Made by a program: the position numbers and the translations under genes. The notes under the pieces were generated by a model that made no database searches, was not told where the DNA came from, and was given only the letters and a program-made list of their open reading frames with translations. A DNA stretch of 64,000 bases from a virus (lineage: Duplodnaviria > Heunggongvirae > Uroviricota > Caudoviricetes): positions 243,550 through 307,549 of the IMG/VR virus record IMGVR_UViG_3300028887_000066; one strand, given 5' to 3'. Of the stretch, positions 2,508-63,057 are shown in pieces. Within the stretch, counting starts at the first letter, position 1; every line of letters starts with the position of its first letter.

Positions 2508-2544
2508 TTGCAAATATAAGTTTTTATTCTGACATGGCAAAATA
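2508..2544 (-). promoter_or_regulatory. Bacteroidetes-type promoter (-33 TTTGCCA .. 19 nt .. -7 TATATTTG) driving 2061-2489
   Basis: On the minus strand: caaatata (2511-2518) = TAtaTTTG and tggcaaaa = TTTGCCA -33 element. Confidence 0.6.
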
Positions 2545-2547
2545 ATC

Positions 2548-2733
2548 CTACTCATTATCTTCCATCGGCTCAATCATATTAAGGAATTTCCTTAATTTTG
2601 ACTTGTTTGTATGAGCGTCTGTTTTTGCCATAGTTCCATTATACTTGGCCGCCGTTCCTTTCGGATATGACGCATTATATCCGTTTCTGAACAAACGCCT
2701 CCATAAATTACCCTTAAAACTATTTCTTTGCAT
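2548..2733 (-). CDS. hypothetical small basic protein (61 aa)
   Basis: ORF filling the gap between neighbouring genes. Confidence 0.35.
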   Translation of the reverse strand: MQRNSFKGNLWRRLFRNGYNASYPKGTAAKYNGTMAKTDAHTNKSKLRKFLNMIEPMEDNE

Positions 2734-3688
2734 CTTTCAATAATAATTTAAGCAGTTTCTGTTTCTCTTTGTCCGATAAATTGTCGGCGATTTCTGAAAC
2801 CTTACTTTTTTTCTTTGTAGGTTTTGTCTTTTTCACTACAACTGTTTTATAGCTATTATAAGCATCTACTAACTCTTTCTCTTTGCCCAATGTCTTGAAA
2901 AACATATAGTAATTTGAGTTATGGAAACCCGTTACCTCATACTCACCAATATTTTCCTCTGGCGGAATCAGCCTGTCGATTTTTTGCTTCTTGAAAAACT
3001 TCACTACTTCATCAATATATCTGTCCAAATCAATATACTTTAATGAACCGATACATGAAAATCTGAAACTACCCCCGCTATTCAACCAACGACAATTCTC
3101 ACCATTGTTAATGCGCCCACAAAAACCATCATAAATAAGACTACTGTTATCCCTCCAACAATACCACAAACCATCATCCTTCAATATGTTTTCACGTTCC
3201 ATATTGTTTTCCGAATTCACACGCTGTCTGATAGCCAATGATTTTTTATACTTTATTAGATCAAGCTTGAAAATATTCCCGCAAAAATTGCATATATTTG
3301 GTAATCCATCTTTATAGGCTCCATTTATACTTGAAATCAACGTTTCACCCAATTCATATTTGATGTCAAGCAATATCTCTTCACCTTCATATGTAACTCC
3401 GTCGATTTTCTTAAAATCGAAATACGGGCCACCCTCATCCAATTCCTTTTCATTTACAAATCTTCTTCCGCATCCAGCCGAAAACATTTCATCCCATGTC
3501 CCCCATATTTTATTTTCGACCTCCATACCGTATTTTATTTCGGGTGATTCGTCATCATCAGTAATGAGTATGGTAATTGAATTTATACGAGCCTTGTCAC
3601 CATAACATTCTCTTTTATAAGTCCATGAACCTGCCTTAAACAAGAATTGATCACCAAGTTTAAATTTTGTTTTAACCTTTCGCTCCAT
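2720..3688 (-). CDS. hypothetical protein (322 aa)
   Basis: Long ORF. Confidence 0.65.
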   Translation of the reverse strand: MERKVKTKFKLGDQFLFKAGSWTYKRECYGDKARINSITILITDDDESPEIKYGMEVENKIWGTWDEMFSAGCGRRFVNEKELDEGGPYFDFKKIDGVTYEGEEILLDIKYELGETLISSINGAYKDGLPNICNFCGNIFKLDLIKYKKSLAIRQRVNSENNMERENILKDDGLWYCWRDNSSLIYDGFCGRINNGENCRWLNSGGSFRFSCIGSLKYIDLDRYIDEVVKFFKKQKIDRLIPPEENIGEYEVTGFHNSNYYMFFKTLGKEKELVDAYNSYKTVVVKKTKPTKKKSKVSEIADNLSDKEKQKLLKLLLKDAKK

Positions 3689-4049
3689 TTCGTCTTTTTA
3701 TCATATTTTCTAACTCTTTCCTGAACTTATCAAGTGGCTGACATTTTTCCAAAAAGAAATCCTTATTCCTATTATTGACAATATCATCAACTTCCCCCAA
3801 CACCTCTTCATCCGTTATCTCTCCTTTGTCATTCATTTCTTCTAACATAACAAAATATTGATGAAGCTTATAGTAGTCATTTGAACGCAGCTTGTATATG
3901 TCATTTCCGATTTTCACAAACCACCCAATATCGGCCGTAACCATTAACGGGAAATTTAATTCACGGGCAATATTCAAATGCCATGATGAATACATCCCTG
4001 TGCTGCTTCCTGAAAATTCAATATCCAATTTATTCATATATCTTATCAC
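3672..4049 (-). CDS. hypothetical protein (125 aa)
   Basis: ORF. Confidence 0.55.
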   Translation of the reverse strand: MIRYMNKLDIEFSGSSTGMYSSWHLNIARELNFPLMVTADIGWFVKIGNDIYKLRSNDYYKLHQYFVMLEEMNDKGEITDEEVLGEVDDIVNNRNKDFFLEKCQPLDKFRKELENMIKRRNGAKG

Positions 4050-4317
4050 CTATTTTTAAGACAAAATATTTAACACCTTTCTCTGCTCCCCATTCCTCTT
4101 TTCCTTCTTGGTATTCAATACCATTAAGGGTAAATGTCATCCTGCGGCTATAATCGCCTTTTTTTGGATAGCCTAATGTGAATTGCACATGTGTGTACTC
4201 TTTGCCGATAAGACGTTTTTTCCAATAATCGTTATAGACTCTGTATTCCTCTTTTTTGACACCACTCTCTATAAGTCTATACCATTTTTCCTTGAGGCTT
4301 AAATACAATATTTTCAT
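4030..4317 (-). CDS. ASCH/DUF3850-like small beta-barrel protein (95 aa)
   Basis: MKILYLSLKEKWYRLIESGVKKEEYR.. resembles ASCH-family N-termini (M-K-x-hydrophobic..G-x-K-x-x-E-x-R). Confidence 0.4.
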   Translation of the reverse strand: MKILYLSLKEKWYRLIESGVKKEEYRVYNDYWKKRLIGKEYTHVQFTLGYPKKGDYSRRMTFTLNGIEYQEGKEEWGAEKGVKYFVLKIGDKIYE

Positions 4318-4535
4318 TCCATATAACTTTCTACATAAAAATTCTCAACAAACGTATCATTCTTCAAGTCCTCATAAGCGTCATCAATTGTGTCAAAACG
4401 GCATTTGCATACGTGATGGCTTGTAAGGTTTACGAAACAATATTTGTTGGTGCTTTCATCTAACATTATTTCACAGATTCTTACGCTACCGTCTTTCCTT
4501 CTAACGGTTATTCTCTCGACTTTCCTCTTCAACAT
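4314..4535 (-). CDS. hypothetical protein (73 aa)
   Basis: ORF, operon-packed. Confidence 0.45.
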   Translation of the reverse strand: MLKRKVERITVRRKDGSVRICEIMLDESTNKYCFVNLTSHHVCKCRFDTIDDAYEDLKNDTFVENFYVESYME

Positions 4536-5826: not shown

Positions 5827-6492
5827 ATGGCGGATAAAAAATCAGACATTATTGTTGCCGTAGTCGCAGGACATGGTAAACAGGTTCAAGGAAAATGGTC
5901 TCCTAAGATAGAAAAAGGTATGGACATACCATCATTTCTCACTGAAGGCGGGCGTTTCAGGGAATGGAAATACGCGAGAGTCGTAGCTGACGATATTGTG
6001 ACAATACTCAAATCATACGGATATGACGCAAGGCTTATAGTTCCTGAAGATGATGATGTTACGTTAGGTGAAAGAGTGAGACGTGTGAATGCGCTTTGCA
6101 CGAAATACGGCGCAGGAAAAGTCCTTATGCTCGAAATTCACGCAAACGCCGTTGGATACGGCGATAAATGGGAATCTGCAAACGGTTGGGAGTGTTATAC
6201 TACTGTAGGTAAAACTAAATCCGACACATTAGCAGAATACCTCTATAAAAGGGCTGAAAAGAACTTCCCAAAAGACATAAAAATAAGAAAGGATCTTACT
6301 GATGGTGACTGTGATAAAGAAATGAATTTCTATGTGATTAGAAAAGTGAATTGTCCAGCCATCCTTAGTGAAAACTTCTTCTATACAAATAAAAAAGACC
6401 TTGAATATATGTCATCAGATGCAGGAATACACGCAGTGGTAAGGACACATGTGGAAGGTACTATCGATTACATCAATTCATTGAAAAAATAA
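5827..6492 (+). CDS. N-acetylmuramoyl-L-alanine amidase (Amidase_3 family); likely endolysin
   Basis: VVAGHGK.., LEIHANAVGYGD, ILSENFFYTN motifs typical of the Amidase_3 / CwlV-AmiC fold. Confidence 0.85.
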   Translation: MADKKSDIIVAVVAGHGKQVQGKWSPKIEKGMDIPSFLTEGGRFREWKYARVVADDIVTILKSYGYDARLIVPEDDDVTLGERVRRVNALCTKYGAGKVLMLEIHANAVGYGDKWESANGWECYTTVGKTKSDTLAEYLYKRAEKNFPKDIKIRKDLTDGDCDKEMNFYVIRKVNCPAILSENFFYTNKKDLEYMSSDAGIHAVVRTHVEGTIDYINSLKK

Positions 6493-6496
6493 AAAT

Positions 6497-6530
6497 AATG
6501 GGAGTGTTTTTTCCGCTCCCATTATTTTTT
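6497..6530 (+). terminator. Rho-independent (bidirectional) terminator after the amidase gene
   Basis: 8-bp stem aatgggag/ctcccatt, then a T-run attatttttt. Confidence 0.7.
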
Positions 6531-6857
6531 ATCTTCCGTCATATGTTCTATTTCTAACGATTCAAATGAATAGGCATTGACACCATCAAAAGCCTTTTTT
6601 AAATGCTGCATTATGATGGCCCATTTACTATCCGCACGTCCCCTTATCTCATCCTGTTTTCCAACTTTTTGCCAAATATTCATTGCAGCTTTTATATGGG
6701 CCATTGCTTTGTCACAATTGTTGTAAAGCTGATTAGGTTCTGCATTACGCATATGGTTCCCCTCATTAACTATTTTTTTAACAGACGCTTTTATTATCTC
6801 ATGTAATTCTGATTCCTTTATTTTCATTGTATTTTTCATTTTTATTTTAATCCCCAA
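6522..6857 (-). CDS. hypothetical protein carrying the shared N-terminal leader (KESELHEIIKASVKKIVNE)
   Basis: ORF; N-terminal motif shared with 15744-16358, 19880-20695 and 21265-21909. Confidence 0.55.
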   Translation of the reverse strand: MGIKIKMKNTMKIKESELHEIIKASVKKIVNEGNHMRNAEPNQLYNNCDKAMAHIKAAMNIWQKVGKQDEIRGRADSKWAIIMQHLKKAFDGVNAYSFESLEIEHMTEDKK

Positions 6858-6860
6858 ACA

Positions 6861-7145
6861 TTATTTTTCTGTACATATTTCCAAAATATCTTCAGCCATT
6901 GATTTCGCCAAATTTTTCGGTAATCTAAAATCGCTGAACTTATGTCCATACATACTGAAATATATACTTATATATTTCTCATCATTATCTAATGAATATT
7001 CTATGTTTTCATCACCATAGAAATCATTTTCCTTTAATATATTTGAACCATGCGTAAGGTTCTCTCCATCTTGGGTATGCAAGGTTTCTTTCGTTTTCAT
7101 ACGCTTCTCTCTCAAATGATATATTCCTGTAGGCTTTATGCCCAT
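6861..7145 (-). CDS. hypothetical protein (94 aa; start uncertain, overlaps 7024-7362)
   Basis: ORF. Confidence 0.35.
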   Translation of the reverse strand: MGIKPTGIYHLREKRMKTKETLHTQDGENLTHGSNILKENDFYGDENIEYSLDNDEKYISIYFSMYGHKFSDFRLPKNLAKSMAEDILEICTEK

Positions 7146-7362
7146 TTAAATATACAAAAAGTTTAATCAGCCATTCAATTCCATACCATATATAGAAAAA
7201 TATGTATAACATGTATTTCATCTGTTCCGTATGAATTGTTTCATGATTAATGTCATACTCATTCAATTCCCTTTTCGCATCGCTTCTTACAAACAGCACA
7301 CCAAAAAGGTTTATTGCCAAATAACCTTTAAATGGTATTATTTTGTTCTTAACTATTTTCAT
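7024..7362 (-). CDS. small membrane-associated protein with HExxH motif (NHETIH); putative metallopeptidase-like
   Basis: HETIH plus a hydrophobic segment; assignment speculative. Confidence 0.4.
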   Translation of the reverse strand: MKIVKNKIIPFKGYLAINLFGVLFVRSDAKRELNEYDINHETIHTEQMKYMLYIFFYIWYGIEWLIKLFVYLNGHKAYRNISFEREAYENERNLAYPRWREPYAWFKYIKGK

Positions 7363-7375
7363 CTTCTTTCTTGTC

Positions 7376-7386
7376 TTTATCTTTGT
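7376..7386 (+). promoter_or_regulatory. plus-strand -7 box TATCTTTG about 35 nt upstream of the 7420 start
   Basis: tatctttg at 7378-7385 matches the TAnnTTTG consensus. Confidence 0.45.
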
Positions 7387-7419
7387 AATAAATACTTAGG
7401 AAAAAGTATTTATAGACGT

Positions 7420-9174
7420 ATGAAAAAGATAACAATTACTGAATCACAATACAAAAAACTCAAGAAAAACATACTTGAGGGAATCGATTGGTCTAAAAAC
7501 CCAAACGGTACTATTAACATGTCAGTAAATCAGGACATGACAGATAAGGCTAATAGCGGCATGAATAGTGTAGATACCCGTGTATTCGGCAGTAAAAACA
7601 ATGTACTACATGGCGATAATACAGGACATTGGGCAACACATTCACTCTATCAGAACGCCACATCAAAACAGGCTGCAATACAATACTATACGAATGTAGT
7701 TAATTTTGTAAAAAATGGAAGGCAAGGCCAATTAGATGTGCCAGAAAACGTTGAGCCTAAGACTGTTACGGCTGTTAATAAATGGTTTTCAGAGGGTAGA
7801 TCAGACAGATGGATTATTGATGCTGCCACTAAGTCAATCGCCCGTATTCAACAAGAGGCTAACCCATATATAAGCACATTAAACAGAGTGACTTCTACAA
7901 ATTCGGATAAAGTGGCAAGATATACTACGGGTACGGTTACGGGGACTGACGTAAAATATATAGCCCTCTTTACGATGACTGACTTCAATTTTAGTGACGC
8001 TATAAAACACGGTAATGTAAGGCAAAACGGAAACATCGATTCTATCCTTGGTATTACGAAGAGTGAAAGGGAAAAAGGTGACAAGGGTACTGACTATGCC
8101 AATATAGATGTGACATACGATAATAAATATACCCCTGATATTGCCCAAAACTTCTCGCTTAAAAATGTACAGGATGGCCATTATAAACAGCAATACGGAT
8201 TAGGTGATGATAATGGTTATTCAAGTGTTTCCCAGTTCTTGGATAAATCGGTTAATTATGCCGCTTATGCCTTGAAGCAGGAAAACTACCATCCAGATTT
8301 CATTGTCGCACCGCCAAGCTCATCCAAATTCAACCAATACTATTGTACAAATCTCAGTAATAAGTTAGGCGTACCATTTAGACAGGATTTCTTTATAAGG
8401 AATTTGATCAATGTGAAATTCGATAATGGGAGAGACACGCAAGCGATGCTTGAAAAAGGCTTTTCACAGAAGGATATAATGGATTTTGAAAATCAGGTGA
8501 AAAATGTGGCTTACAAAGAGATAGCTTATTTCGTATCTGAACCTATCAGGGAATTAGTCTATTCAAACCAAGCCTTATTCTCAAATATATCATTGGCATT
8601 ACATAGCAGGGAAAAAACACCGATAAATGAGGTATTTGACTGTTTAATGATTTATGTATATAGAACAATAATAAATGCCATTCAGTCAGGCAATGATATA
8701 GTGGAAAAACATCTTGTCCATAATTTTATGGCAAAACAAAACAAGCTGTATCAGAAAAAATACGATTCAACACATATATTTACCCAAATAGTACAGCTTA
8801 TCAATTTGAAAATAGGCAAAAAAGTATTCAATGAGTATATGAAAAAGACATTACAATTAGTAAGACAATACTCAAATACATTGAAAGAGAATGGCTATGC
8901 ACTTCGTTTTGATACGAAAAGAGTCAAAGTAACACAATTCCAAAAGCAATTCCGACCATTCTTGCACAATGTATACATCATTGCTGACAATTACATGAAC
9001 AATGGTGAGCTTATGAAGCAATACAGGAATGCAAAGTTCCTTATATTTGACGAGGATATTAACAGCGGGGCCACCCTCAAACTCTGTATTGATGCCTTAG
9101 AGGAAAAAATACCAGATGCCAACGAAAAGAATATAATGTGTCTTGTAAACGCCTATTCCGCTAAAGGATGGTAA
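7420..9174 (+). CDS. large hypothetical protein (584 aa); C-terminal region has a phosphoribosyltransferase-type motif (FLIFDEDINSGATLK) and a ComF-like D-F-I-V-A-P-P-S-S-S segment
   Basis: Start refined to ATG 7420 (MKKITITESQYKKLKKNILEG). FLIFDEDINSGATL fits the type I PRTase PRPP-binding loop hhhhDDxxxTGxT. Confidence 0.65.
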   Translation: MKKITITESQYKKLKKNILEGIDWSKNPNGTINMSVNQDMTDKANSGMNSVDTRVFGSKNNVLHGDNTGHWATHSLYQNATSKQAAIQYYTNVVNFVKNGRQGQLDVPENVEPKTVTAVNKWFSEGRSDRWIIDAATKSIARIQQEANPYISTLNRVTSTNSDKVARYTTGTVTGTDVKYIALFTMTDFNFSDAIKHGNVRQNGNIDSILGITKSEREKGDKGTDYANIDVTYDNKYTPDIAQNFSLKNVQDGHYKQQYGLGDDNGYSSVSQFLDKSVNYAAYALKQENYHPDFIVAPPSSSKFNQYYCTNLSNKLGVPFRQDFFIRNLINVKFDNGRDTQAMLEKGFSQKDIMDFENQVKNVAYKEIAYFVSEPIRELVYSNQALFSNISLALHSREKTPINEVFDCLMIYVYRTIINAIQSGNDIVEKHLVHNFMAKQNKLYQKKYDSTHIFTQIVQLINLKIGKKVFNEYMKKTLQLVRQYSNTLKENGYALRFDTKRVKVTQFQKQFRPFLHNVYIIADNYMNNGELMKQYRNAKFLIFDEDINSGATLKLCIDALEEKIPDANEKNIMCLVNAYSAKGW

Positions 9175-9443
9175 AAATCATACAGTTTCTTGAAGAAAGA
9201 TGTATTACCATATATTTCAGACATTAAATCATCCTGAAAATAGGAGTAGTCGTCAATACATTCGTTTCCGAACATGTCAGTATCATAACGGTATGATTTG
9301 ACAAAATCGGAAACGATTTTTTTCGCCTCTTTACGAAAGAGCTTCAAATCTTTTCCTTCTATAGTAAATTCATCAGTAGCCTTCTCTTCGATTCCCTCAA
9401 GGCACTCTTTGATCAATTCCCTTTTATTCAATTTTTTTCCCAT
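9153..9443 (-). CDS. hypothetical protein (start refined to internal Met)
   Basis: The promoter-like caaagata box at 9459-9466 lies inside the longer ORF, so Met at 9443 is preferred. Confidence 0.45.
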   Translation of the reverse strand: MGKKLNKRELIKECLEGIEEKATDEFTIEGKDLKLFRKEAKKIVSDFVKSYRYDTDMFGNECIDDYSYFQDDLMSEIYGNTSFFKKLYDFYHPLAE

Positions 9444-9490
9444 TTGTCTCTTGTTTTGACATCGCAAAGATAGGATTTTATTTTCACATG

Positions 9491-9522
9491 AACAAAAAAA
9501 CATTCACTTTTTCAAGTGAATG
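9491..9522 (-). terminator. Rho-independent terminator closing the leftward tRNA transcription unit
   Basis: 9-bp perfect hairpin cattcactt/aagtgaatg followed (minus sense) by TTTTTTTG. Confidence 0.7.
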
Positions 9523-9534
9523 CTATGATATTAG

Positions 9535-9616
9535 ACTCCGTAGTTGGATTTGAACCAACGTGTGCAACGCAAATGGTTTTGCAGACCATCCCTATCGACC
9601 CCTCAGGCATACGGAG
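9535..9616 (-). tRNA. tRNA, type II-like (13-nt variable arm), apparent anticodon GCA (Cys)
   Basis: Manual fold: acceptor CTCCGTA/TACGGAG, anticodon stem ATGGT/ACCAT with loop CTGCAAA, variable arm TTGCGTTGCACAC, T-arm GTTGG-TTCAAAT-CCAAC. Confidence 0.55.
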
Positions 9617-10035
9617 GTAAAAATTCTAAAACATTACGTTTCATTCGGCGAAACCGTATAACGCTTGTTTTTAATGAACAAGTGATGAAACTTATCCGAC
9701 GTATCGGAAAGGACAAACCATTTGTACGTTTTCCATCAGCCGTAACGCTTTAGGAGGATTTCCTGGTAATCTTGCTCGGTTTCATTAAGCATCCTCGGGC
9801 CCAACTACATTCCCTATTCCACCTTTACCGTCTACACCGTGGTCAAATGGAAAAAACCACGATATGCTTCTCTCTTAACGTCTTTTCTAGGATAGACCTG
9901 AGTTTTTCGAACCGCTCCTCCTGCATCTGTCCTGATATGTTTGACAGCACCCATATAAAACTTCGGAGGAGGCAAACTATATAAATATACGCACTCCCTA
10001 GAACACCTACACTGATGTTGTGTAGCCCTATCGTG

Positions 10036-10107
10036 CGGCCTATGCAGGGATCGAACCCGCGACGTTTCCTTTTAGGGAGGACTGCTCTGCCACTGAGCTA
10101 ATAGACC
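10036..10107 (-). tRNA. candidate amber suppressor tRNA (anticodon CUA)
   Basis: Manual fold: acceptor GGTCTAT/ATAGGCC, D-arm GCTC-AGTGGCA-GAGC, anticodon stem GTCCT/AGGAA with loop CCCTAAA (positions 34-36 = CTA, A37), T-arm GCGGG-TTCGATC-CCTGC. C33 instead of U33 is atypical. Confidence 0.5.
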
Positions 10108-10147
10108 TTTCAATTAGGGAGCATTGTATCTCCCCGATTGTTTTTGC

Positions 10148-10185
10148 ATTGCAAAGATAAGGCATTTTATTGGAATGGCCAAATT
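10148..10185 (-). promoter_or_regulatory. Bacteroidetes-type promoter (TTTGGCCAT..20 nt..TATCTTTG) reading leftward into the suppressor tRNA
   Basis: caaagata (10151-10158) and tggccaaa (10176-10183) on plus = -7 and -33 on the minus strand. Confidence 0.65.
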
Positions 10186-10204
10186 TCTTTGCAAAAATGT
10201 TCAT

Positions 10205-10531
10205 TCAAAGAATTTCGACTACTTTTCCGTAGATGTTATTCCGACTTATTACCCCATTGGCGTGACCGTGATTGTTGCCGATCAAATACCTGTCACCAGG
10301 TTTTACCGACCATATCAAATGAAGATAATAGTGTCCGTTCACCTTACATAGTACAATATCGCGTTTCTTTAATTCAGTAGCATCATTCACGGGAATACAA
10401 ATTACAGGCTGCTTTGATTTCAGAATAGGCAACATACTATTACCTATACCAGTGATTTTAGCTACTTTCCCCTGTCTTAATGCTTCAGCGGAATACTTAT
10501 TCTCAAACCCTTCATATTCAACATTCCACAT
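10205..10531 (-). CDS. S24-family (LexA/UmuD-like) serine peptidase domain protein, no DNA-binding domain
   Basis: GNSMLP (Ser nucleophile motif) and a downstream Lys (LCKVNG); 108 aa standalone catalytic domain. Confidence 0.6.
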   Translation of the reverse strand: MWNVEYEGFENKYSAEALRQGKVAKITGIGNSMLPILKSKQPVICIPVNDATELKKRDIVLCKVNGHYYLHLIWSVKPGDRYLIGNNHGHANGVISRNNIYGKVVEIL

Positions 10532-11192
10532 AATCTAAGGTTTTAATCAAGTGCCACAATGACATTATACTTTCAACGTAGTTTTTCTTTTGTGTTTCCA
10601 TACTGTATGTATCACCCGTACCACCGTGTGTAGAGCCAAAATTGAATTTTATCTCCTCAGGCTTTCCGTAATCTGGATTTTTCGGATTTTCATTCTCATT
10701 ATGCAAGAATTCACGATACTCATTCTTAGTGCAGGTTTTATAGGCGTAACAATACTCATTATGACTTAAAAGATACAGTGTGTGTTCCGACACTTGCTTG
10801 TAGATGTCTTTTTTGTCCCTGTTTTTTCTGTCATAACAGTAGATGGATATAGGCATATCGTTATTTTCTTCATAACTTTGATATGTTCCGAAACGACCAT
10901 TACGCTCTTTTAGCACTTTCTGAAATGTGTCCCTTTTTCTTACAACAAAGTCGTCATCACTATAATTTAGAACATTCTTAAATGGCTCTAATTCTGAATA
11001 AAAAGTATTTGAGTACCCTCTGTTCTTCAGCATTTTTTCGCACTTATTAACCTGTTCTGTGATGTACTTCAATGCTTCATCCTCACTGAGGTTGTGCTTT
11101 ATACAGTAATAAACTACATGTGTGTGGTGATATACGTCCCACTTTCTCTCGGTCATCCAATTTTTCAGGAAAATATAACTATTGTTTTTCAT
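10518..11192 (-). CDS. hypothetical protein (224 aa)
   Basis: ORF. Confidence 0.6.
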   Translation of the reverse strand: MKNNSYIFLKNWMTERKWDVYHHTHVVYYCIKHNLSEDEALKYITEQVNKCEKMLKNRGYSNTFYSELEPFKNVLNYSDDDFVVRKRDTFQKVLKERNGRFGTYQSYEENNDMPISIYCYDRKNRDKKDIYKQVSEHTLYLLSHNEYCYAYKTCTKNEYREFLHNENENPKNPDYGKPEEIKFNFGSTHGGTGDTYSMETQKKNYVESIMSLWHLIKTLDYVEC

Positions 11193-11421
11193 AATTTTAA
11201 TCGTATTTGTAAAAAGTAATTATTGTTTTTAATGTGTGATCAATTTTTAACTGAAAAATCAATCGAAAAAAGCAAAATCCCATTTCAAAATACGATTATC
11301 GGATAACCACGGATTTTAGTAACCTACCATTTCTGTCTTTTCATAAATTCAGACGTTTTTTAATTAATGATTATTTTCTTTAGAATTAACATTACAAATA
11401 TACAAATCGTTTTGCATATTG

Positions 11422-11493
11422 TAGGCCGCGCAGGGGTCGAACCTGCCATCTTCTGATCCAGAGTCAGACGTGTTACCACTACACCAGCAGCCT
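11422..11493 (-). tRNA. tRNA-Gln (anticodon CUG)
   Basis: Manual fold: acceptor AGGCTGC/GCGGCCT, D-stem GTGT/ACAC, anticodon stem TCTGA/TCAGA, loop CTCTGGA, T-arm GCAGG-TTCGACC-CCTGC. Confidence 0.8.
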
Positions 11494-11503
11494 GTTTATT
11501 GAG

Positions 11504-11577
11504 TAGGGACGAAGAGGGTCAAACTCTTACCTTTTGGTTCAAAGCCAAATGTGCAGAAGTCGCTACACCACATCCCT
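11504..11577 (-). tRNA. tRNA-Gln (anticodon UUG), atypical D-loop
   Basis: Acceptor AGGGATG/CGTCCCT, anticodon stem TTTGG/CCAAA with loop CTTTGAA, T-arm AAGAG-TTTGACC-CTCTT; the D-loop lacks GG. Confidence 0.5.
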
Positions 11578-11719
11578 ATAAAATACTACGGATAAAATAT
11601 ATGACTTACCTCGGCGGGCCGCATACTCGACCACTTCACCACCTACCAGATCTGTCCTCGTTTAGTATGATAAGAGAGTATGGCAACTTATAATCAAATA
11701 TATTGATCAGTAGTATTAG

Positions 11720-11792
11720 TACGCCTAACAGGATTCGAACCCGTATAAAACACTTTAGAAGAGTGTTGCCTAATCCATTCGGCCACAGGCGC
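11720..11792 (-). tRNA. tRNA-Arg (anticodon UCU)
   Basis: Anticodon stem ACACT/AGTGT, loop CTTCTAA, T-arm ACGGG-TTCGAAT-CCTGT, acceptor GCGCCTG/TAGGCGT. Confidence 0.75.
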
Positions 11793-11798
11793 GTTTTG

Positions 11799-11870
11799 TA
11801 CCCCGACCCAGAATCGAACTGGAAACTAAATCTTAGGAGGATTTTGTTATATCCATTTAACTATCAGGGC
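11799..11870 (-). tRNA. tRNA-Arg (anticodon CCU)
   Basis: D-stem GTTA/TAAC, anticodon stem AAATC/GATTT, loop CTCCTAA, T-arm TCCAG-TTCGATT-CTGGG. Confidence 0.7.
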
Positions 11871-11885
11871 TTTAACATTGTTTAG

Positions 11886-11972
11886 TAGCGCGTATGGGAT
11901 TCGAACCCATGAGGGCGTTTTATGCCCACTACATTGAAAGTGTAGCGACCTAGACCACTAGTCCAACGCGCC
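11886..11972 (-). tRNA. tRNA with Glu anticodon UUC but an 18-nt stem-loop variable arm (type II architecture)
   Basis: Acceptor GGCGCGT/ACGCGCT, anticodon stem CTACA/TGTAG with loop CTTTCAA, variable arm TGGGCATAAAACGCCCTC (GGGC/GCCC stem), T-arm ATGGG-TTCGAAT-CCCAT. Confidence 0.55.
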
Positions 11973-11980
11973 ATATATTG

Positions 11981-12054
11981 TAGCGGTAGCGAGGCTCAAA
12001 CTCGCAATCTCCACATTGAGAGTGTGGTGACTTAATCAGTTCGTCTATACCGCC
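11981..12054 (-). tRNA. tRNA-Glu (anticodon CUC)
   Basis: Acceptor GGCGGTA/TACCGCT, anticodon stem CCACA/TGTGG with loop CTCTCAA, T-arm GCGAG-TTTGAGC-CTCGC. Confidence 0.65.
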
Positions 12055-12203: not shown

Positions 12204-12240
12204 CTGCAAATATAAGATTAATTTTTCAATTGGCCAAATA
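12204..12240 (-). promoter_or_regulatory. Bacteroidetes-type promoter (TTTGGCCAA..20 nt..TATATTTG) heading the leftward tRNA operon
   Basis: caaatata 12207-12214 and ttggccaaa 12230-12238; the tRNA array and its terminator (9491-9522) lie downstream. Confidence 0.65.
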
Positions 12241-12618: not shown

Positions 12619-12913
12619 CCTAAAATCATTTTTCGCAAATATACAAAAACCGAGAGCAAATCCATTTTTATGAATCTGTTCTCGGTCTAAATTTCTGTCA
12701 GGACGTTCTTATATTAAACACTGTACTTACAATCTACGTATTAAATAAAAGATCAAGAGACGACAGGCGACCGAGAAATTGTTCTCTCTGCTGCCTACAT
12801 TCTTGCTCTTGTTCTCTTCTATTTTTCAAAACGTAAATCATAACACGTATGTTCTATTTCTTTTTATAAATATACTACTTTTCCAAAAAATAACAATAAA
12901 AAATGAAAAAAAA

Positions 12914-18355: not shown

Positions 18356-18440
18356 TAAAATCTTGTTATCTTAGACAAATATACAATAAAAATGGAAGGC
18401 TCTTGAGAGTCTTCCATATAAAAACACCGTATTAGTGGAT

Positions 18441-18842: not shown

Positions 18843-18987
18843 AAAACGTAAAATTTTTGGAGCTGTTATCTGCCCCCATAGTTATTATTATGCACGGCTA
18901 TCCACATGCCGTGTTTCCTTGTGGTTCAGAACAAACCAAAAACGGTACGTTTATAAATATACAAAATTTTAACTTTTTTTGATCATA

Positions 18988-21164: not shown

Positions 21165-21264
21165 ATGATTTATATTTGAAACTATATTGTCTCTCTCACC
21201 CTAAATATACAACATTTTTTCCTATTTAAAGCTATTTATTATAATAAAAAACACTTTTTCAAAA

Positions 21265-27750: not shown

Positions 27751-27771
27751 AAGACAAATATACAAAACTTT

Positions 27772-45651: not shown

Positions 45652-45753
45652 ATGTTTTTTAATTAATACATTGCAAATATACGGCAAAAAAATAGAACCA
45701 CCAAAATATTTCATTGATGGTTCTATCCATGATTATGAAAAAAGTAAAAAACA

Positions 45754-50384: not shown

Positions 50385-50475
50385 TTCTGTATAAATTTCA
50401 ATCAAAATAAATATACAAAAAATTAGGGATACACAATACTGCATACCCCTTTAATGACTTTCTCTGATCAATGAT

Positions 50476-52010: not shown

Positions 52011-52035
52011 ATCCTAAATATACAGAAAATACGTT

Positions 52036-52349: not shown

Positions 52350-52387
52350 ATGCAAAGATAAGACAATTATTTCAAACGGCCAAATCA
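52350..52387 (-). promoter_or_regulatory. Bacteroidetes-type promoter (TTTGGCCGT..20 nt..TATCTTTG) for 52036-52329
   Basis: caaagata 52353-52360 and cggccaaa 52377-52384. Confidence 0.6.
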
Positions 52388-53353: not shown

Positions 53354-54002
53354 ATTTTTTATACAACTCTGTCATCCACCACTTAGTTTTGAACTTTACT
53401 TTCGGAAGTCTTTGCCCTTTCATCAACGTTGTGCGTCGGCAAACGACCCCTTCTTTTACATTAGGGTATTGGCAACCTTCCTGAGTCCAGTCATTGTCCT
53501 GAATCGACTTTATAAAGTCTTTTGTTAATTTTCCTCTGTATATCAGTTCTGGTTGTATTATTTCCTTATGTGAATAAAACAGCTCAATTAGGGGTTTAAA
53601 CTCGATATATCCTTTCTTTTTCAAAAATACATCTATCAATGCCAGCCTAAGTTCATCACCGTCTTCATGAAAACCTGCAAAGGAATGGTCTCCATACCAC
53701 TCAAAATAGAATGTGACTTCATCAATGCCATTAAACAGACCCTTCTTTCCTGAATTTTCGGTGACTATTCTTGAAAGCAGGTCAGGGTAGCATGAATTAT
53801 TAAACCATTTAACGGCATCACCAAATTGTTCATCATTTTCATCAAATACTCGCTTACGCGACCCAAACTGTTCAAACGCTTTCCTTTTCGGAGAATATTT
53901 TATGCACACGTTCTGTCCGTCAAGCTTATTGAATGCAGCTATTTCTTCTCCAAGTAATGTTCCATCGTCTTGTATTCTGTTTATACTATCGTAATGCTTC
54001 AT
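53322..54002 (-). CDS. ATP-dependent RNA ligase, Rnl2-like nucleotidyltransferase domain only
   Basis: Motif I FNKLDGQNVCIKY (KxDGxN), motif III-like FYFEWYG, motif IV EGVVCR, motif V KVKFKTK. Confidence 0.7.
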   Translation of the reverse strand: MKHYDSINRIQDDGTLLGEEIAAFNKLDGQNVCIKYSPKRKAFEQFGSRKRVFDENDEQFGDAVKWFNNSCYPDLLSRIVTENSGKKGLFNGIDEVTFYFEWYGDHSFAGFHEDGDELRLALIDVFLKKKGYIEFKPLIELFYSHKEIIQPELIYRGKLTKDFIKSIQDNDWTQEGCQYPNVKEGVVCRRTTLMKGQRLPKVKFKTKWWMTELYKKYDPETAKQLE

Positions 54003-54945
54003 TTTTAAAAGTCCCCTCAATTCTTTTATAGTATTCTGCGTATTTTTCAGATTTGACTATATCTCTAGTCCGCCTTGCAACCCCATAGTCAATATCTATT
54101 ACATCACTAAATGTATGTGTTTCATCCATAATGTAAATTCTTTGGGACAAAAATAACGCCTCAGAAATATCATGCGTTATCATTATAAATGTCCTGTCTA
54201 TTTTTTGATCATAGAATATCTTGAGGAGAATGTCCTGCATTGCAGCCTTTGATGCGATGTCCAATCCTGAAGAATATTCGTCAAGCACAAGAATTTGTGA
54301 ATCGGATGCCAAAGACCTTGCCAATGCGACGCGCTGTAATTGACCTCCTGACAATGGTGGCATTTTTGCCCATTTATCTTCGTGTCCCTTCAACCCCACC
54401 AGATCAATAAGCTCTAATGCTTTCTCTTTTGCCACCTTTTTGTCAATGCCTTTCATCTTCATAGGAAGCATTACATTTTCTAACACACTCATCCATTCAA
54501 AAGACGAATACTGCTGAAATACCGTAGGCACAAACGTTTTGTCAGTATATGGCTTACCATACATCAATACCTCCCCTTCATTTGGCTTTGTCAAACCTGA
54601 TATAATACGACTTAACTGTGTCTTTCCTGAGCCTGATTTACCCATAATGGTAATAAACTGTCCCATACCCTTAAAATCAGGTATCCTAAAATTAAGTTTA
54701 TCAAAAAGTGTGAAATTACCAAACTTTAAAGTAATGTCTTTCAGATTAATGACATCCAACGGCTCACACTCATAAATTCCGTCCATGACAGCTTTTTCAT
54801 TGTTTTCCTCGACAGTTGTAGGCTCAGTATTATTTTGCGCCTCAGAAGGCTTTAAAATGGCTCCTGCGATACTTTCAGATGTGTTATCAACCGTGGATAC
54901 CTTCGTATTTTCAGGTTCCTTGAACAATGTATCAAATTTTCCCAT
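53986..54945 (-). CDS. ABC transporter ATP-binding protein (NitT/TauT-like)
   Basis: Walker A GKSGSGKT, signature LSGGQLQRVALARSL, Walker B ILVLDE. Confidence 0.9.
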   Translation of the reverse strand: MGKFDTLFKEPENTKVSTVDNTSESIAGAILKPSEAQNNTEPTTVEENNEKAVMDGIYECEPLDVINLKDITLKFGNFTLFDKLNFRIPDFKGMGQFITIMGKSGSGKTQLSRIISGLTKPNEGEVLMYGKPYTDKTFVPTVFQQYSSFEWMSVLENVMLPMKMKGIDKKVAKEKALELIDLVGLKGHEDKWAKMPPLSGGQLQRVALARSLASDSQILVLDEYSSGLDIASKAAMQDILLKIFYDQKIDRTFIMITHDISEALFLSQRIYIMDETHTFSDVIDIDYGVARRTRDIVKSEKYAEYYKRIEGTFKNEALR

Positions 54946-54951
54946 AAATTA

Positions 54952-55785
54952 TTATTTATTATACTTGAATGGAAACAGTTTTTTTGAGAAATAAGTAAAC
55001 GCCATATCTTGTAGCGTACCAATTATGATGATTATAAACAAAAGAGCGAATGCTTCTGCCATGTACGATTGCCGTATCATCGTGTTTATCAATGCGCCGA
55101 TTCCGCTAATCGAACCATCTTTATATATCATTTCAGCGATAACCACATATGTATAACTGATCGCCGTCAAATTTATAATATCATTTACTATCCCGCTTGT
55201 TACATATGGAAAATATACATAGCGGAATTTTTGCCACTTATTAGCCCCTAATGTTTGTATTGTTTGTAGATAAACATTATCCTTAACATTACTTGGGTTT
55301 TGTAGGTCGTTAATTTTATTTACCACAGTAGGTATAATATAAATCATAATGGCCACGGTAAGAAACCACGTCTTCATTTCAAATGTCAGTCCCCAAATAA
55401 CGATAAAAATACTTGAAACCGCAGGTAATGGCAAAAATCTTACGCTGTTTATACTTTTTCCAAATAAGATATTGTTAATTGGGTATAATGCCAAGAAAAA
55501 GCCTATCGGTAAAGACAATAGGATGGCATAAACATAACACATAAGGTTAAGTTTTACCGTAAACCAAATATTAGCAAATAAATGATTATCAGTGATAAGA
55601 CCACCAATCGATGTAATTACATTAAACGGGTCTGGAAGCACCTTAGGTGAAACCAATTCAAATGCTGCAATAAAATGCCATAGCATAATGATGATGGTGA
55701 AACCGATAACAGTAATAATGCTGTTATTCAATACACCAAAATCACTATCCCCACCAAATTTGAAGAGTTTTTTGAACAAATTCAT
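54952..55785 (-). CDS. ABC transporter permease
   Basis: Six TM helices, binding-protein-dependent permease topology. Confidence 0.8.
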   Translation of the reverse strand: MNLFKKLFKFGGDSDFGVLNNSIITVIGFTIIIMLWHFIAAFELVSPKVLPDPFNVITSIGGLITDNHLFANIWFTVKLNLMCYVYAILLSLPIGFFLALYPINNILFGKSINSVRFLPLPAVSSIFIVIWGLTFEMKTWFLTVAIMIYIIPTVVNKINDLQNPSNVKDNVYLQTIQTLGANKWQKFRYVYFPYVTSGIVNDIINLTAISYTYVVIAEMIYKDGSISGIGALINTMIRQSYMAEAFALLFIIIIIGTLQDMAFTYFSKKLFPFKYNK

Positions 55786-55982
55786 TATTTATTTCTATTG
55801 ATTAAAATTGTTTCGCCACAATTAGGGCAGTTTATCGAATCTTTGACAACCGTTTCTCTTGCTATTCTGTTAACAAGTTCTTGATCATGTTCATTTATTA
55901 ACGACGACCATAATACAACGGTTATAAATGCCATTACTAAAACTAATAGGATACCTCCTATAACCTGAAACACTGTTTTCAT
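55785..55982 (-). CDS. small membrane protein with CxxC zinc-ribbon
   Basis: TM helix + CPNCGE. Confidence 0.4.
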   Translation of the reverse strand: MKTVFQVIGGILLVLVMAFITVVLWSSLINEHDQELVNRIARETVVKDSINCPNCGETILINRNK

Positions 55983-56054
55983 ATTTTGGAAAATTTGAGG
56001 GAGATGCTTACAATACCCTGAAAAACACCTCCCTCTTTATTATTTATGGAAAAC

Positions 56055-57584
56055 CTATTCGCTCACTAACTGGAAGTCTGTTGTACGATAGTTTTGGTTA
56101 TCACCTACTACACCATCTTCGATAGCTTTCTTCGGGCCGTTTCCTATGATGATAAAACGATTTGCATCAAACCCGTATTCTCTGATGAGGTAATTAGCTA
56201 CTGCCTGCGCACGGCGTTTTGAAAGCTCTACGTTATAGGCTTGATTGCCCGTATTGTCAGTATTTCCAACAATTTTAACACGAGAACCTGCAAACTGCTT
56301 CGCTATGCCAACGAACTCTCTGTCAATAAGTGTTTTCGCATCGTTACTAAGCAAGTCACTATTAACACCAAACTCGATGGTAAGCTTCTTATCGGAAATA
56401 ACCTCCTTATTCACTATTTCCTCTGTAACGGCTGTAAACTTAACACTTGTTTCCGCATCCTGATTACCCTGCACCAATTCAGTATCGCCATCTAATGCCT
56501 CAATAATAGCTGAATTAGACACCTTGCGCCAAGACAAAGGCTTTTTACACAGCCCAAGACCTTCATATGTACGTGCCATTTTAGAATATAGTTCATCGCC
56601 CTTAATACCCGTGTATGAACTATTCAAACCGAAGAAATTAAGTTCATCACCCAATGTGGCATAACGGATATTTTTACTTCCCTCTACGGCAAACTCTGTA
56701 TCAGTACCATATGCCTTTGCAAAAGCGTCTGCTGCAAAATTCACCGCATTTTCATCTGTATTCATCAAATTATTGGCATAAAGCAATGCAGCAACAAGCT
56801 TCTTCAACTTATCCGAATTGTTATCGATGTATGTTTGTTTTGCAATAAGACAGTCACAAATAATATTTGAAGCTTGCTTTGTCGATACAAGTACCTTTGC
56901 TCCAGCAATAGATGCTACGATGTCTTGATCATCGGGAGAAAACACCACTGCCGCATCACATTGTCCAGACTTAAACACTTGTGCCGCATCAAGTCCGCTT
57001 GCTACAACCTTAATATTCACTTTGTCGTTCTTAACACCTTCTCCTGTATTTACCTTGTCATACCCAATACCATTTGTCTCCAAGGTATTCAAGAGCAATG
57101 TATGGGAGGCGGTTCCTTCAGAGCAAGCCACAACCTTACCGATCAAATCACCTACTGTAGAAATATTCTTATTTACTACGATGGCATCCGCTCCACGAGA
57201 CCAATTTGACAGATTAAACAAACGCGCATCAGCCATATCAGAACCCTCACTCATTTCTACAGGTAAGGCATCCGCCGTACAATACAGGACATCAATGTCT
57301 CCATTTCTAAATGCGGCTCGACCTGCCTGAAAATCATCCTGTACAAGAATCTTCAACTTGATTCCGTAGTTCTTGTAGATATAAGAATCCTCATTCGGCT
57401 CAAGTCCGTTGTTTAGATACATGAACGGCATAAAGCCTGCATACGTATTAGTTCCAACGACAATCACGTCCTTATCAGAACTACCACCAAAACCTGTGTA
57501 CTTGGAAATGCCGAAAACGGCTCCTGCAACAATGATAACAATAAGGGCAATCTTTACCCAAGGTCTAACAATCATCTTTGCCAT
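56055..57584 (-). CDS. fusion protein: N-terminal TM anchor, NMT1/TauA-like ABC substrate-binding domain, C-terminal OmpA/MotB peptidoglycan-binding domain
   Basis: C-terminal NTDNTGNQAYNVELSKRRAQAVANYLI is the OmpA-like motif; the central region resembles periplasmic sulfonate/nitrate binding proteins. Confidence 0.7.
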   Translation of the reverse strand: MAKMIVRPWVKIALIVIIVAGAVFGISKYTGFGGSSDKDVIVVGTNTYAGFMPFMYLNNGLEPNEDSYIYKNYGIKLKILVQDDFQAGRAAFRNGDIDVLYCTADALPVEMSEGSDMADARLFNLSNWSRGADAIVVNKNISTVGDLIGKVVACSEGTASHTLLLNTLETNGIGYDKVNTGEGVKNDKVNIKVVASGLDAAQVFKSGQCDAAVVFSPDDQDIVASIAGAKVLVSTKQASNIICDCLIAKQTYIDNNSDKLKKLVAALLYANNLMNTDENAVNFAADAFAKAYGTDTEFAVEGSKNIRYATLGDELNFFGLNSSYTGIKGDELYSKMARTYEGLGLCKKPLSWRKVSNSAIIEALDGDTELVQGNQDAETSVKFTAVTEEIVNKEVISDKKLTIEFGVNSDLLSNDAKTLIDREFVGIAKQFAGSRVKIVGNTDNTGNQAYNVELSKRRAQAVANYLIREYGFDANRFIIIGNGPKKAIEDGVVGDNQNYRTTDFQLVSE

Positions 57585-59275: not shown

Positions 59276-59322
59276 TATATCTAAAATTTTATTGTTTTTC
59301 TTCTCAAATATACATTTAATTT

Positions 59323-61074: not shown

Positions 61075-61112
61075 ATGCAAAGATAAGGCTTTTTCCCCAA
61101 TTAGCCAAATAA
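61075..61112 (-). promoter_or_regulatory. Bacteroidetes-type promoter (TTTGGCTAA..20 nt..TATCTTTG)
   Basis: caaagata 61078-61085 and tagccaaa 61102-61109. Confidence 0.6.
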
Positions 61113-61113: not shown

Positions 61114-61626
61114 TCACTTTTTTTCATATGTTGTCTCGTTATAGGCTTTAATAGCCCTATCCACATCGTACCATTGTGGATGTTCTTTAACTTCTTGAAT
61201 AATGTTTTCAAAAATTTTACCATCAACATCAAGCCTACCTCCCTGCCACCATGATTGGATGTCCATAGAAAACCATCCACCATCGTTTTTAGTTCTAACA
61301 AACCAAAGATTATTGTCATCATATACTGGACAAGAACATTCTACAAAATAATCCGTTTCGGTCTCATAAAGCCAATCATGGTTTGGCATTTCGTCATTAT
61401 GCCAATGATCATATAATGATACAAGATTATATATCGGATTATCCTGTGTACATTCATCGTCAGGTACTGTAACCATTATAGATTTTGCTTCTTCGGGTGT
61501 TACAATTCTTTCACACTTGCAAATATAATGCCTTGACGGGCTTGTTTTGCCATCATCAAAGAAATGATAAAATTCACCTACTTTTGGGGTTGGTTTTAGC
61601 TCAATATTCTTATTTTCCATATACAC
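61114..61626 (-). CDS. hypothetical protein (170 aa)
   Basis: ORF. Confidence 0.55.
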   Translation of the reverse strand: MYMENKNIELKPTPKVGEFYHFFDDGKTSPSRHYICKCERIVTPEEAKSIMVTVPDDECTQDNPIYNLVSLYDHWHNDEMPNHDWLYETETDYFVECSCPVYDDNNLWFVRTKNDGGWFSMDIQSWWQGGRLDVDGKIFENIIQEVKEHPQWYDVDRAIKAYNETTYEKK

Positions 61627-61631
61627 TAATT

Positions 61632-62075
61632 TTATTTTAGCAATTCAGGATTATCGTACATGTTTCCCTCTACAACGGCATCCATTTCATCAAGCCACTT
61701 TTGATCAATAGTCTGCCAAATATCCCAAGACTCATCCAACTCAAAAACATTAGCCATCTTGAAACCTCCCTTATTGGGAAGATATTTTACGATTTTCAAC
61801 AACTTTTGCCCGTCGCTTAATACAACGGAAATAATATCCCCGTCATATATCTTAACGAAATTTTTATCAGTTAGCTCCGATAGCATTCCAACTGTGTCAC
61901 TTAACACTTCATATTTTAACCCTGTATTGGTAATAATTACGCCCTTGCCGTCAACTCCCACAATTGGCTGATAATAGCCATAACAAAATGAAAACGAACC
62001 ATCATTATTAGCATAGACGAATTTGCCTCTTACGGTGGGTATGAATTTTTTAAATATATCTGTACTTTTCATCAC
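61632..62075 (-). CDS. hypothetical protein (147 aa)
   Basis: ORF. Confidence 0.5.
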   Translation of the reverse strand: MMKSTDIFKKFIPTVRGKFVYANNDGSFSFCYGYYQPIVGVDGKGVIITNTGLKYEVLSDTVGMLSELTDKNFVKIYDGDIISVVLSDGQKLLKIVKYLPNKGGFKMANVFELDESWDIWQTIDQKWLDEMDAVVEGNMYDNPELLK

Positions 62076-62674
62076 CTGTACAATTTTTCTTCCTTGATCA
62101 AATTATCTATTTCTTTGCAAGTATAAACAGACACATCTTCACCGCTCTTTGCCATTTCCCTTATCTTGGTGGAATGTATTGTGACGGGTTCCTCTATCTT
62201 CAATGTTCCGTAATAATAATTAGAGTATCTTACGGCTTCACATATGTCGTTTCCGTCAAATAAAATTAAGAATTTATTAGACCTCAGCAACTCTTTTGAT
62301 TTAAACCACTTATCATCCAAAAGTTCCAAAAATGTCTCTTCAGTTATTATCCACCAAAATTTATGACCTATCATTTTATCCTCGCCACGAAGAAAATGAG
62401 TAATAAGGTCATAAGTATATTTTGGTCGGATAGTCGCTTCAATATCGTCAACCAACACATTCTCGGAAAGCCCAGAAAACATGTATCGGCACATCTGATA
62501 CCTTTTCCAAAAATCCAAACTTTCAGATTTATTAGGATTCTGATATGCAGGTATGATATGAATATGGTCTATCCCACAAAAATCCATCATGCCACTATTC
62601 AAAACCGCTTCAATACACTTTCTATGTCCTATATGAGGCGGATTAAAACTACCTAAGAATATTGCCCTGCTCAT
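62072..62674 (-). CDS. nicotinate/nicotinamide mononucleotide adenylyltransferase (NadD/NMNAT-like)
   Basis: LGSFNPPHIGH (HxGH nucleotidyltransferase motif) and TIHSTKIRE (ISSTxIR motif). Confidence 0.8.
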   Translation of the reverse strand: MSRAIFLGSFNPPHIGHRKCIEAVLNSGMMDFCGIDHIHIIPAYQNPNKSESLDFWKRYQMCRYMFSGLSENVLVDDIEATIRPKYTYDLITHFLRGEDKMIGHKFWWIITEETFLELLDDKWFKSKELLRSNKFLILFDGNDICEAVRYSNYYYGTLKIEEPVTIHSTKIREMAKSGEDVSVYTCKEIDNLIKEEKLYR

Positions 62675-62997
62675 CCTTCCAACATTTTATTAAGTTCATC
62701 GGCATTTCCGCACCATCCCAGCCCATTCAAACCAAGATAATACGCGCCAAGGTAAAAATCAAATGAATCCAGGTCAAACTTGTTAAGCTGTGGATGGAAT
62801 CTGTATTTAGTGTGGCATACAGGACATTCAAAAATAGCCATAAAGCCGTTATATGTTTCACACCATCCAACAAGCAACGGTTTCTCACCGTGTTTTACTC
62901 CACTGCCATTGCACTCAGGACATACGAACTCAGGGGCATATTCAATATCCTCCCACTGGCTTATCTTCGGTATAATGTCAATAACCTTCTTTTCCAT
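62671..62997 (-). CDS. small zinc-binding protein (CPEC .. CPVC)
   Basis: ORF downstream of the promoter at 63020-63057. Confidence 0.5.
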   Translation of the reverse strand: MEKKVIDIIPKISQWEDIEYAPEFVCPECNGSGVKHGEKPLLVGWCETYNGFMAIFECPVCHTKYRFHPQLNKFDLDSFDFYLGAYYLGLNGLGWCGNADELNKMLEG

Positions 62998-63019
62998 AAT
63001 TTATTTCTTTTTAATTACA

Positions 63020-63057
63020 TTGCAAATATAAGATTAATTTTTCATTTGGCCAAACTA
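63020..63057 (-). promoter_or_regulatory. Bacteroidetes-type promoter (TTTGGCCAA..20 nt..TATATTTG)
   Basis: caaatata 63023-63030 and ttggccaaa 63046-63054. Confidence 0.65.

Follow-up and report, generated by a model that had tools for sequence, protein, structure and literature searches.

Introduction

The early promoters of phage T4 form a phage-wide family that serves the unmodified host polymerase and fits the host consensus more tightly and over a greater length than typical host promoters do. For Bacteroides, phage promoters of the P_BfP1E6 family were reportedly put to use as constitutive expression parts by Whitaker et al. in 2017. The P_BfP1E6 part has been called a strong constitutive B. 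fragilis phage promoter (PMC11554821). Promoters of the primary sigma factor of Bacteroidota, sigma-A, are described by a -33 element TTTG and a -7 element TAnnTTTG (PMC7366714, PMC9723704), the published -33 consensus being TTTG only (PMC7366714). The -33 element is weak or undetectable in genome-wide sets, and most host promoters of this phylum have no recognisable -33 (PMC7366714). In the transcriptome of F. psychrophilum the -7 box was located at -12 to -5 (PMC9723704). In the literature we found neither a description of a -33 element extended by GCCA nor a structural paper on Bacteroidota sigma-A. Here we analyse such an extended promoter motif in 64,000 nucleotides of an uncultivated Caudoviricetes phage with a genome of about 356 kb (IMG/VR record IMGVR_UViG_3300028887_000066, positions 243,550 to 307,549; in the following called the window).

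Each site of the motif consists of an A/T-rich flank, a -33 element TTT(G/T)GCCA, a spacer made of a T-tract, C or G and an A-tract, and the downstream sequence (C/T)(T/G)TAT(A/C)TTTGCA. Most likely these sites, hereafter class A, are strong, near-consensus promoters read by the host RNA polymerase carrying the primary sigma-A of Bacteroidota. The core is of the Bacteroidota sigma-A type in position, strand, spacing and match to host promoters, as the initial annotation of this DNA had proposed.

Occurrence and conservation of the motif

How often does the motif occur and which parts of it are conserved? In the window TTTGGC-N18-TAnnTTTG has six exact matches where 0.04 would be expected, a number not attained in any of 100 shuffles. 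All six are intergenic, lie on the minus strand and have a gap of exactly 20 nucleotides between TTTG and TA. A seventh copy at 2509-2542 reads TTTTGCCAT and deviates by a single G-to-T substitution in the same register. The seven leftward copies of the initial annotation are thus all present on the minus strand, and the spacing it called invariant is indeed 20 nucleotides in the six exact matches and kept in register in the seventh. Moreover, the extended -7 element TATMTTTGCA is found ten times (0.87 expected), every time on the minus strand, and the general Bacteroidota pattern TTTG-N19-21-TAnnTTTG twelve times (1.9 expected).

In all seven sites the -7 element is TAT(A/C)TTTG followed by CA; the -33 element fits TTTG-N20-TA in six sites and appears in register as TTTTG in the seventh. 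Alignment of the seven copies yields ATTTGGCCAaTT(G/C)AAAAAttannCTTATmTTTGCAnTGtAAt. The description of the -33 element TTTGGCCAA as nearly invariant is somewhat overstated: the full 9-mer is exact in only three of the seven copies, TTTGGCCA is found in four and TTTGGC in six. Taken by itself and allowing one mismatch, the 9-mer is about as frequent in the window as expected (24 matches, 22.6 expected), and the significance is confined to the composite motif.

All seven sites lie on the coding strand in gaps between minus-strand genes or tRNAs; the genes of the window are almost wholly on the minus strand, with strong GC skew. From the end of the -7 element it is about 21-44 nucleotides to the start codon or tRNA, and 152 nucleotides to the tRNA array. 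Another 18 kb flanking the window, taken from the 355,767-bp JGI contig Ga0310696_10000012 (sample 3300031993), which encodes the DnaK-like protein and in which the window corresponds to about 48.3-112.3 kb, contain four further class A copies with TTTGGCCG, TTTGGTGG, TTTGGCCAATTC and TTTGGCCAAGTC, giving a total of 11 in 82 kb; the sequence covered is therefore 82 of about 356 kb.

Comparison with host promoters

Is the GGCC(A) extension of the -33 element a property of the phage? The initial annotation had placed it outside the host consensus and had suggested that it marks a phage-specific class of genes or the site of a phage regulator. Comparison with bacterial genomes does not support these proposals. 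A scan with the 34-nucleotide pattern TTTGGCCA-N16-TATNTTTGCA, using one genome per bacterial species, gave at least 120 loci. Among the 80 genome titles listed, 69 (about 86%) are Bacteroidota, mostly metagenome-assembled genomes (MAGs) of rumen or gut Bacteroidales, several of which were matched on two or three contigs. Together with the BLAST matches to phages described below, this agrees with the host phylum assigned earlier, and it supports a narrower assignment to rumen or gut Bacteroidales. The free spacer positions of these host matches show the same layout of T-tract, C and A-tract. Fifteen of the 120 listed matches sit 12-81 nucleotides upstream of host tRNA genes, as compared to seven of 142 unselected host promoters (Fisher p = 0.04). 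In addition, host tRNA promoters outside the pattern selection carry TTTGGCCAG, TTTTGCCAG, TTTTGTCAG, TTTGGTGGT and TTTGCACAA in the same register, and these variants are the forms found at the phage sites 2509-2542, 28464-28497 and 45672-45705.

For a host profile, the remaining TAnnTTTGCA sites of the host loci (0.88 Mb), 142 in all, were aligned in a fixed register from TA; since these loci were chosen for one exact match each, the profile stands for lineages in which the motif is used at least once. It is A-rich from -30 to -25, followed by T, T, T at -24 to -22 (frequencies 0.54-0.63) and T or G at -21. The modal bases at the positions in question are G at -20 (0.43), C at -19 (0.35), C at -18 (0.39) and A at -17 (0.47), and downstream of them come T, T, T at -16 to -14, G or C at -13, an A-rich stretch from -12 to -7 and G at -1 (0.62). 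The modal host sequence TTT(T/G)GCCA-TTT-(G/C)-A-tract-G-TAnnTTTGCA thus equals the phage class A consensus column by column.

Conversely, a position weight matrix built only from the 32 nucleotides upstream of the 142 host sites, with no phage sequence and with the -7 element left out, was applied to the 100 TAnnTTTG sites of the window. All seven class A sites are among the ten best, five of them being the top five, with scores of 8.4-16.8 as compared to a null distribution with a 99.9th percentile of 7.4 and a median of -5.3. The remaining three of the top ten are the sites at 28473, 45681 and 9472. Counts, positions and spacing of the motif and its identity with the host promoter profiles are direct observations on the DNA, and judged by this comparison GGCC(A) belongs to the host's own strong-promoter form, so that a phage-specific signal is not needed to account for it. 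The sites are listed below with their scores in the host matrix.

63021-63054, minus strand: class A promoter TTTGGCCAAATGAAAAATTAATCTTATATTTGCA, start codon at 62997, score 11.8; followed by genes for a 108-residue protein and then for nicotinamide mononucleotide (NMN) adenylyltransferase-like and YopX-domain proteins (Pfam)
61076-61109, minus strand: class A promoter TTTGGCTAATTGGGGAAAAAGCCTTATCTTTGCA, ATG at 61044, score 12.9; followed by the gene for a 288-residue protein with a GmrSD_N/DUF262-type domain (Pfam)
52351-52384, minus strand: class A promoter TTTGGCCGTTTGAAATAATTGTCTTATCTTTGCA, ATG at 52329, score 10.9; followed by genes for a 97-residue repeat protein and then a metallophosphoesterase
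44049-44082, minus strand: class A promoter TTTGGCCAATTCAAAAAATAGTCGTATCTTTGCA, ATG at 44006, score 16.8, first of the 100 sites and best match to the host profile; followed by the gene for a 451-residue protein (PHROG 'RNA-binding protein', Pfam DUF2828)
12205-12238, minus strand: class A promoter preceding the six-tRNA array 11421-12054, score 13.7
10150-10183, minus strand: class A promoter 44 nucleotides upstream of the amber-suppressor tRNA 10035-10107 (anticodon CTA), score 13.8
2509-2542, minus strand: degenerate class A promoter TTTTGCCATGTCAGAATAAAAACTTATATTTGCA, ATG at 2489, score 8.4; its form TTTTGCCA recurs at host tRNA-Val promoters
45672-45705, minus strand: full promoter with -33 element TTTGGTGG, overlapping a terminator-like hairpin upstream of a Thg1-like gene (Pfam), score 9.6
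28464-28497, minus strand: full promoter with -33 element TTTTGTCAG, located inside a terminator-like hairpin or immediately behind it, upstream of the gene 27772-28452, score 11.3
9463-9496, minus strand: full promoter whose -33 TTTG comes from the T-run of the terminator hairpin 9499-9524, upstream of the gene 9153-9503, score 9.6
9534-12054, minus strand: eight phage tRNA genes including the suppressor (anticodon CTA), a region served by two class A promoters

In strain variants that are 95-98% identical, the sequence from -33 to -7 is unchanged at the 52360, 44058 and 45681 sites while adjacent bases differ; the exception is one variant that has TATCTTCG at the 61085 site (61076-61109), where the -7 element is altered. 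The differences among these variants are too few to test constraint statistically.

The palindrome in the upstream element

The extension creates a dyad, TTGGCCAA, which is a perfect 8-bp palindrome in three of the seven copies, and one might take this palindrome for the operator of a dimeric regulator of the phage, such as the XRE-like protein encoded at 42242-42532, or for a site of a phage-modified polymerase, which would make it the mark of a phage-specific temporal class. At these bases the seven sites vary less than average host promoters do, and GGCC is retained in them even though it is about twofold depleted throughout the window. The two halves of the dyad, however, are not equally kept: TTGG is intact in six of seven copies, CCAA only in three, and other phages with this architecture replace GCCA by the non-palindromic GTCA, GTAG or GCTA. 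Since the half-sites are kept unequally and related phages and hosts have non-palindromic variants, recognition looks asymmetric and an operator for a dimeric regulator becomes unlikely. Moreover, host tRNA promoters have the extension too, and its bases are the modal ones of the host profile. The XRE-like gene is present but shows no link to the motif, and near its upstream region there is no second operator-like copy. Taken together, we regard an operator as very improbable and the palindromic form noted in the initial annotation as, on this comparison, incidental.

The same architecture in other phages

A scan of IMG/VR with the 34-nucleotide pattern found 39 loci, many on contigs of 150-410 kb and several with multiple copies. 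A further 70 promoters in these loci, which had not been ascertained by the pattern, have the consensus aaaaa-TTTGG-(T/C)-n-(A/G)-TTT-C-AAAAAA-...-C-G-TAyhTTTGCA with the fixed spacing kept, and the positions of GCCA vary by phage (GTCA, GTAG, GCTA, GTGG or CATA). BLAST of one 56-nucleotide promoter against cultured and deposited phages yielded hardly any phages other than those of Bacteroides (36) and Riemerella (18), Prevotella Lak phages (10) and gut Microviridae, with the matches falling in unannotated intergenic DNA. The cultured B. thetaiotaomicron phage Bacteroides phage SJC13 carries ATTGCAAATTCAAATAAAAGCCGTATCTTTGCA in the same register, and Riemerella phage GRAP2 carries TTTGGTGGTTAAAAAAATAGTCGTATATTTGCAGTGTTAAT.

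Could the copies then be a dispersed repeat that arose when a single intergenic cassette was recently duplicated, with its individual bases under no selection? Their similarity does reach into the spacer and the first transcribed bases (TTTGCAnTGTAAT). Outside of about -45 to +15, however, the flanks are unrelated, with neither extended flanking homology nor target-site duplications seen, and within these limits variable and fixed columns alternate as in the profile of a binding site, the fixed ones being the same in unrelated phages and hosts. BLAST comparison of the IMG/VR loci with the window likewise finds shared sequence only as promoter-sized matches of 35-55 nucleotides. A duplicated cassette is therefore hardly credible as origin of the copies.

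No close known phage was found: megablast of 20 kb of the window against INPHARED gave no match, and tblastn of the helicase gave only distant matches of less than 40% identity in phages of unrelated hosts. Two viral loci with relatives of the DUF2828 gene belong to unrelated phages without this promoter type and provide no footprint of an orthologous promoter.

Sites with the downstream element only

A second family of sites, class B, is defined by TGTATATTTR, which has 13 matches in the window as compared to 1.2 (1.18) expected, every one on the minus strand.

7147-7156, minus strand: class B site
11395-11404, minus strand: class B site
12636-12645, minus strand: class B site
18376-18385, minus strand: class B site
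18954-18963, minus strand: class B site
21202-21211, minus strand: class B site
27755-27764, minus strand: class B site
31518-31527, minus strand: class B site
36917-36926, minus strand: class B site TGTATATTTG, directly after a terminator hairpin and T-run (36927 onwards)
41345-41354, minus strand: class B site
50408-50417, minus strand: class B site
52015-52024, minus strand: class B site
59305-59314, minus strand: class B site

About half of the class B sites come right after a hairpin and T-run, for example after the hairpins at 31531-31558 and 50425-50450. Their upstream scores in the host matrix are low, the bases following the element are T or A and not the CA of class A, and alignment of the window sites reveals no conserved upstream box apart from the hairpins and T-runs. 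The initial annotation had listed seven copies with a -7 element only. Five of them (near 12640, 31510, 36915, 41345 and 50410) belong to this family, and the one near 35085 is a weaker variant, TGTATATTTC, which ends in C. The copy near 45675, in contrast, carries the -33-like TTTGGTGG at the right spacing and is grouped with the full promoters above. The class B copy at 52015-52024 (TGTATATTTA) ends four nucleotides before the ATG at 52010, and may give a leaderless or near-leaderless transcript or be no promoter at all.

Do the two forms correspond to phases of the infection? Sites with full -33 and -7 elements could be early promoters for the unmodified host polymerase, and TGTATATTTR could require a phage factor that bypasses or replaces the -33 contact, comparable to T4 middle or extended -10 promoters. 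Scores in the host matrix are bimodal, with ten sites at 8.4 or above and all others at 6.2 or below; class B is a tight family, separate from class A also in its 3' context; and the two are distributed differently, class A clustering at 64-42 kb and 12-2 kb and class B at 41-13 kb. On the other hand, the lack of a recognisable -33 is shared with most Bacteroidota host promoters (PMC7366714), hosts likewise prefer G at -1 and T at -3/-4, and class B has no conserved upstream box other than hairpins and T-runs. A temporal division thus seems unlikely. It would be more far-reaching, and in our view distinctly doubtful, to propose that the two forms encode a temporal programme, class B acting through a phage factor that bypasses sigma region 4 in analogy to sigma appropriation, and that in addition the bases at -20 to -17 (GCCA here, GTCA or GTAG elsewhere) track the sigma-A of the host. 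If this were true, hosts of uncultivated Bacteroidota phages could be predicted from the promoter bases -20 to -17.

How the host polymerase may read the sites

How could host polymerase with sigma-A recognise class A sites? They may be read as hexamers, either TTGGCC-N17-TATmTT or TGGCCA/TTGCCA-N16-TATmTT, and a scan with sigma-70 patterns lists 12205-12238 both as TTGGCC-17-TATATT and as TGGCCA-16-TATATT; an E. coli-type sigma-70 scan of the window found no enrichment over shuffles. Since the hexamers fit the classical geometry of the sigma-70 family, GCCA would most simply complete a hexamer that sigma region 4 contacts. If the -7 box occupies -12 to -5 (PMC9723704), initiation would fall about five nucleotides after TTTG, inside the conserved CAnTG. 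The phage copies have the form that hosts use at tRNA genes and should recruit the host polymerase efficiently. Class A would then drive auxiliary operons as well as the tRNA genes of the phage, the amber suppressor among them, and the TGTATATTTR sites probably restart transcription inside long runs of genes on the same strand.

Several points weigh against host sigma-A promoters of this kind. We infer promoter activity, strength and timing, as well as the sigma factor, the hexamer reading and the start site, from sequence. The host promoters called unselected come from lineages that use the motif, and some of the host MAG contigs could be mis-binned phage or prophage DNA. At GCCA the seven window sites vary less than the average host promoter does, although they were picked in the initial annotation for this uniformity. 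Finally, a phage sigma-A-like factor or RNA polymerase may be encoded beyond the 82 of about 356 kb that were read.

Genomic context

An independently made ENA assembly (356,049 bp) agrees in every base over the 20.8 kb that were compared, and variants that are 95-99% identical occur in other sequencing runs. The gene content is typical of the auxiliary region of a jumbo phage, with Hsp70, Thg1, IMPDH-like, RNA ligase, ABC transporter, helicase and nicotinamide adenine dinucleotide (NAD) salvage genes and eight tRNAs. An Hsp70/DnaK-like protein is encoded at 45754-47628 and a GrpE-like protein at 24334-24822, and ABC-transporter parts are found at 53986-57584, comprising ATPase, permease and an NMT1-type substrate-binding protein fused to an OmpA domain.

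Within or next to the tRNA region the minus strand has gaps free of open reading frames at 9617-10034 (418 nucleotides), 11193-11420 (228 nucleotides) and 12619-12913 (295 nucleotides). Rfam at the gathering threshold identifies only the eight tRNAs and has no match in these long gaps, which could contain unannotated RNAs or long leaders. TAG, the codon complementary to the anticodon of the suppressor tRNA, ends 15 of the 75 genes of the window, with convincing read-through in none; since TAG ends genes here, any TAG recoding would be confined to another part of the genome, for example to late genes.

A cluster for NAD+ salvage and synthesis covers window positions 62072-64000 and positions 5868-10603 of the flanking locus L166. 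It encodes isochorismatase-like (a faint match), NAD synthase, NAPRTase, Nudix and NMN adenylyltransferase-like proteins and contains promoters of the class A family at 63021-63054 and near L166 7711. Gastrointestinal jumbo phages are reported to carry NAD+ systems of their own (PMC11662467), and the cluster fits this picture. Past the low-coordinate end of the window, at a distance of about 4.5 kb, lies a reverse-transcriptase gene (RVT_1; locus L168 15260-16348). Of two class A promoters found here, one is near L168 16354 at the 3' end of the gene and the other near L168 13224, some 2 kb upstream; the gene could be part of a retron, a diversity-generating retroelement or a group II intron.

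In a maximal-order Markov model the tetramer CCGG would be expected about 87 times in the 64 kb and is found not once; CTAG occurs eight times (72 expected), and GGCC, CATG and GATC are about twofold depleted. This looks like strong avoidance of restriction sites, CCGG-type sites foremost. A gene for a DNA methyltransferase of the N6_N4_Mtase family lies just past the high-coordinate end of the window (L166 1-538).

Comparison with known promoter systems

The analysis maps the promoters in 82 kb of a genome of about 356 kb and lends support to a Bacteroidales host for this uncultivated phage. It reveals no new regulatory mechanism; the promoter type is known, and the value is modest and lies in a fuller Bacteroidales consensus. 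Such a longer consensus could aid promoter prediction, host assignment of Bacteroidota phages and the design of expression parts.

How do the two families compare with described promoters? Class B, a predicted promoter family, resembles extended -10 (TGn) promoters and terminator-promoter modules in combining TG with a strong downstream element, in having no upstream element and in often following directly on a hairpin and T-run. It differs from extended -10 promoters in that its TG abuts TA with no base between. The early promoters of T4 differ from class A in sigma specificity and serve here only as an analogy, an early timing of class A being hypothetical. The P_BfP1E6 family is similar in that phage promoters resemble the strongest stable-RNA promoters of the host, but the genome analysed here, of about 356 kb, is unrelated, and its promoters favour GCCA at positions -20 to -17.

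Closest are the sigma-A promoters of Bacteroidota themselves. Class A shares with them both boxes, the 20 nucleotides between TTTG and TA and the location upstream of genes, and matches 142 host promoters position by position. The difference lies in the length of the conserved block, which in the phage and in rumen and gut Bacteroidales comprises about 45 nucleotides with A-tract, TTT(G/T)GCCA, TTT(C/G), A-tract, G and TAnnTTTGCA. Strong sigma-A promoters of these bacteria and the promoters of their phages would thus share one architecture, far longer than the published TTTG / TAnnTTTG.

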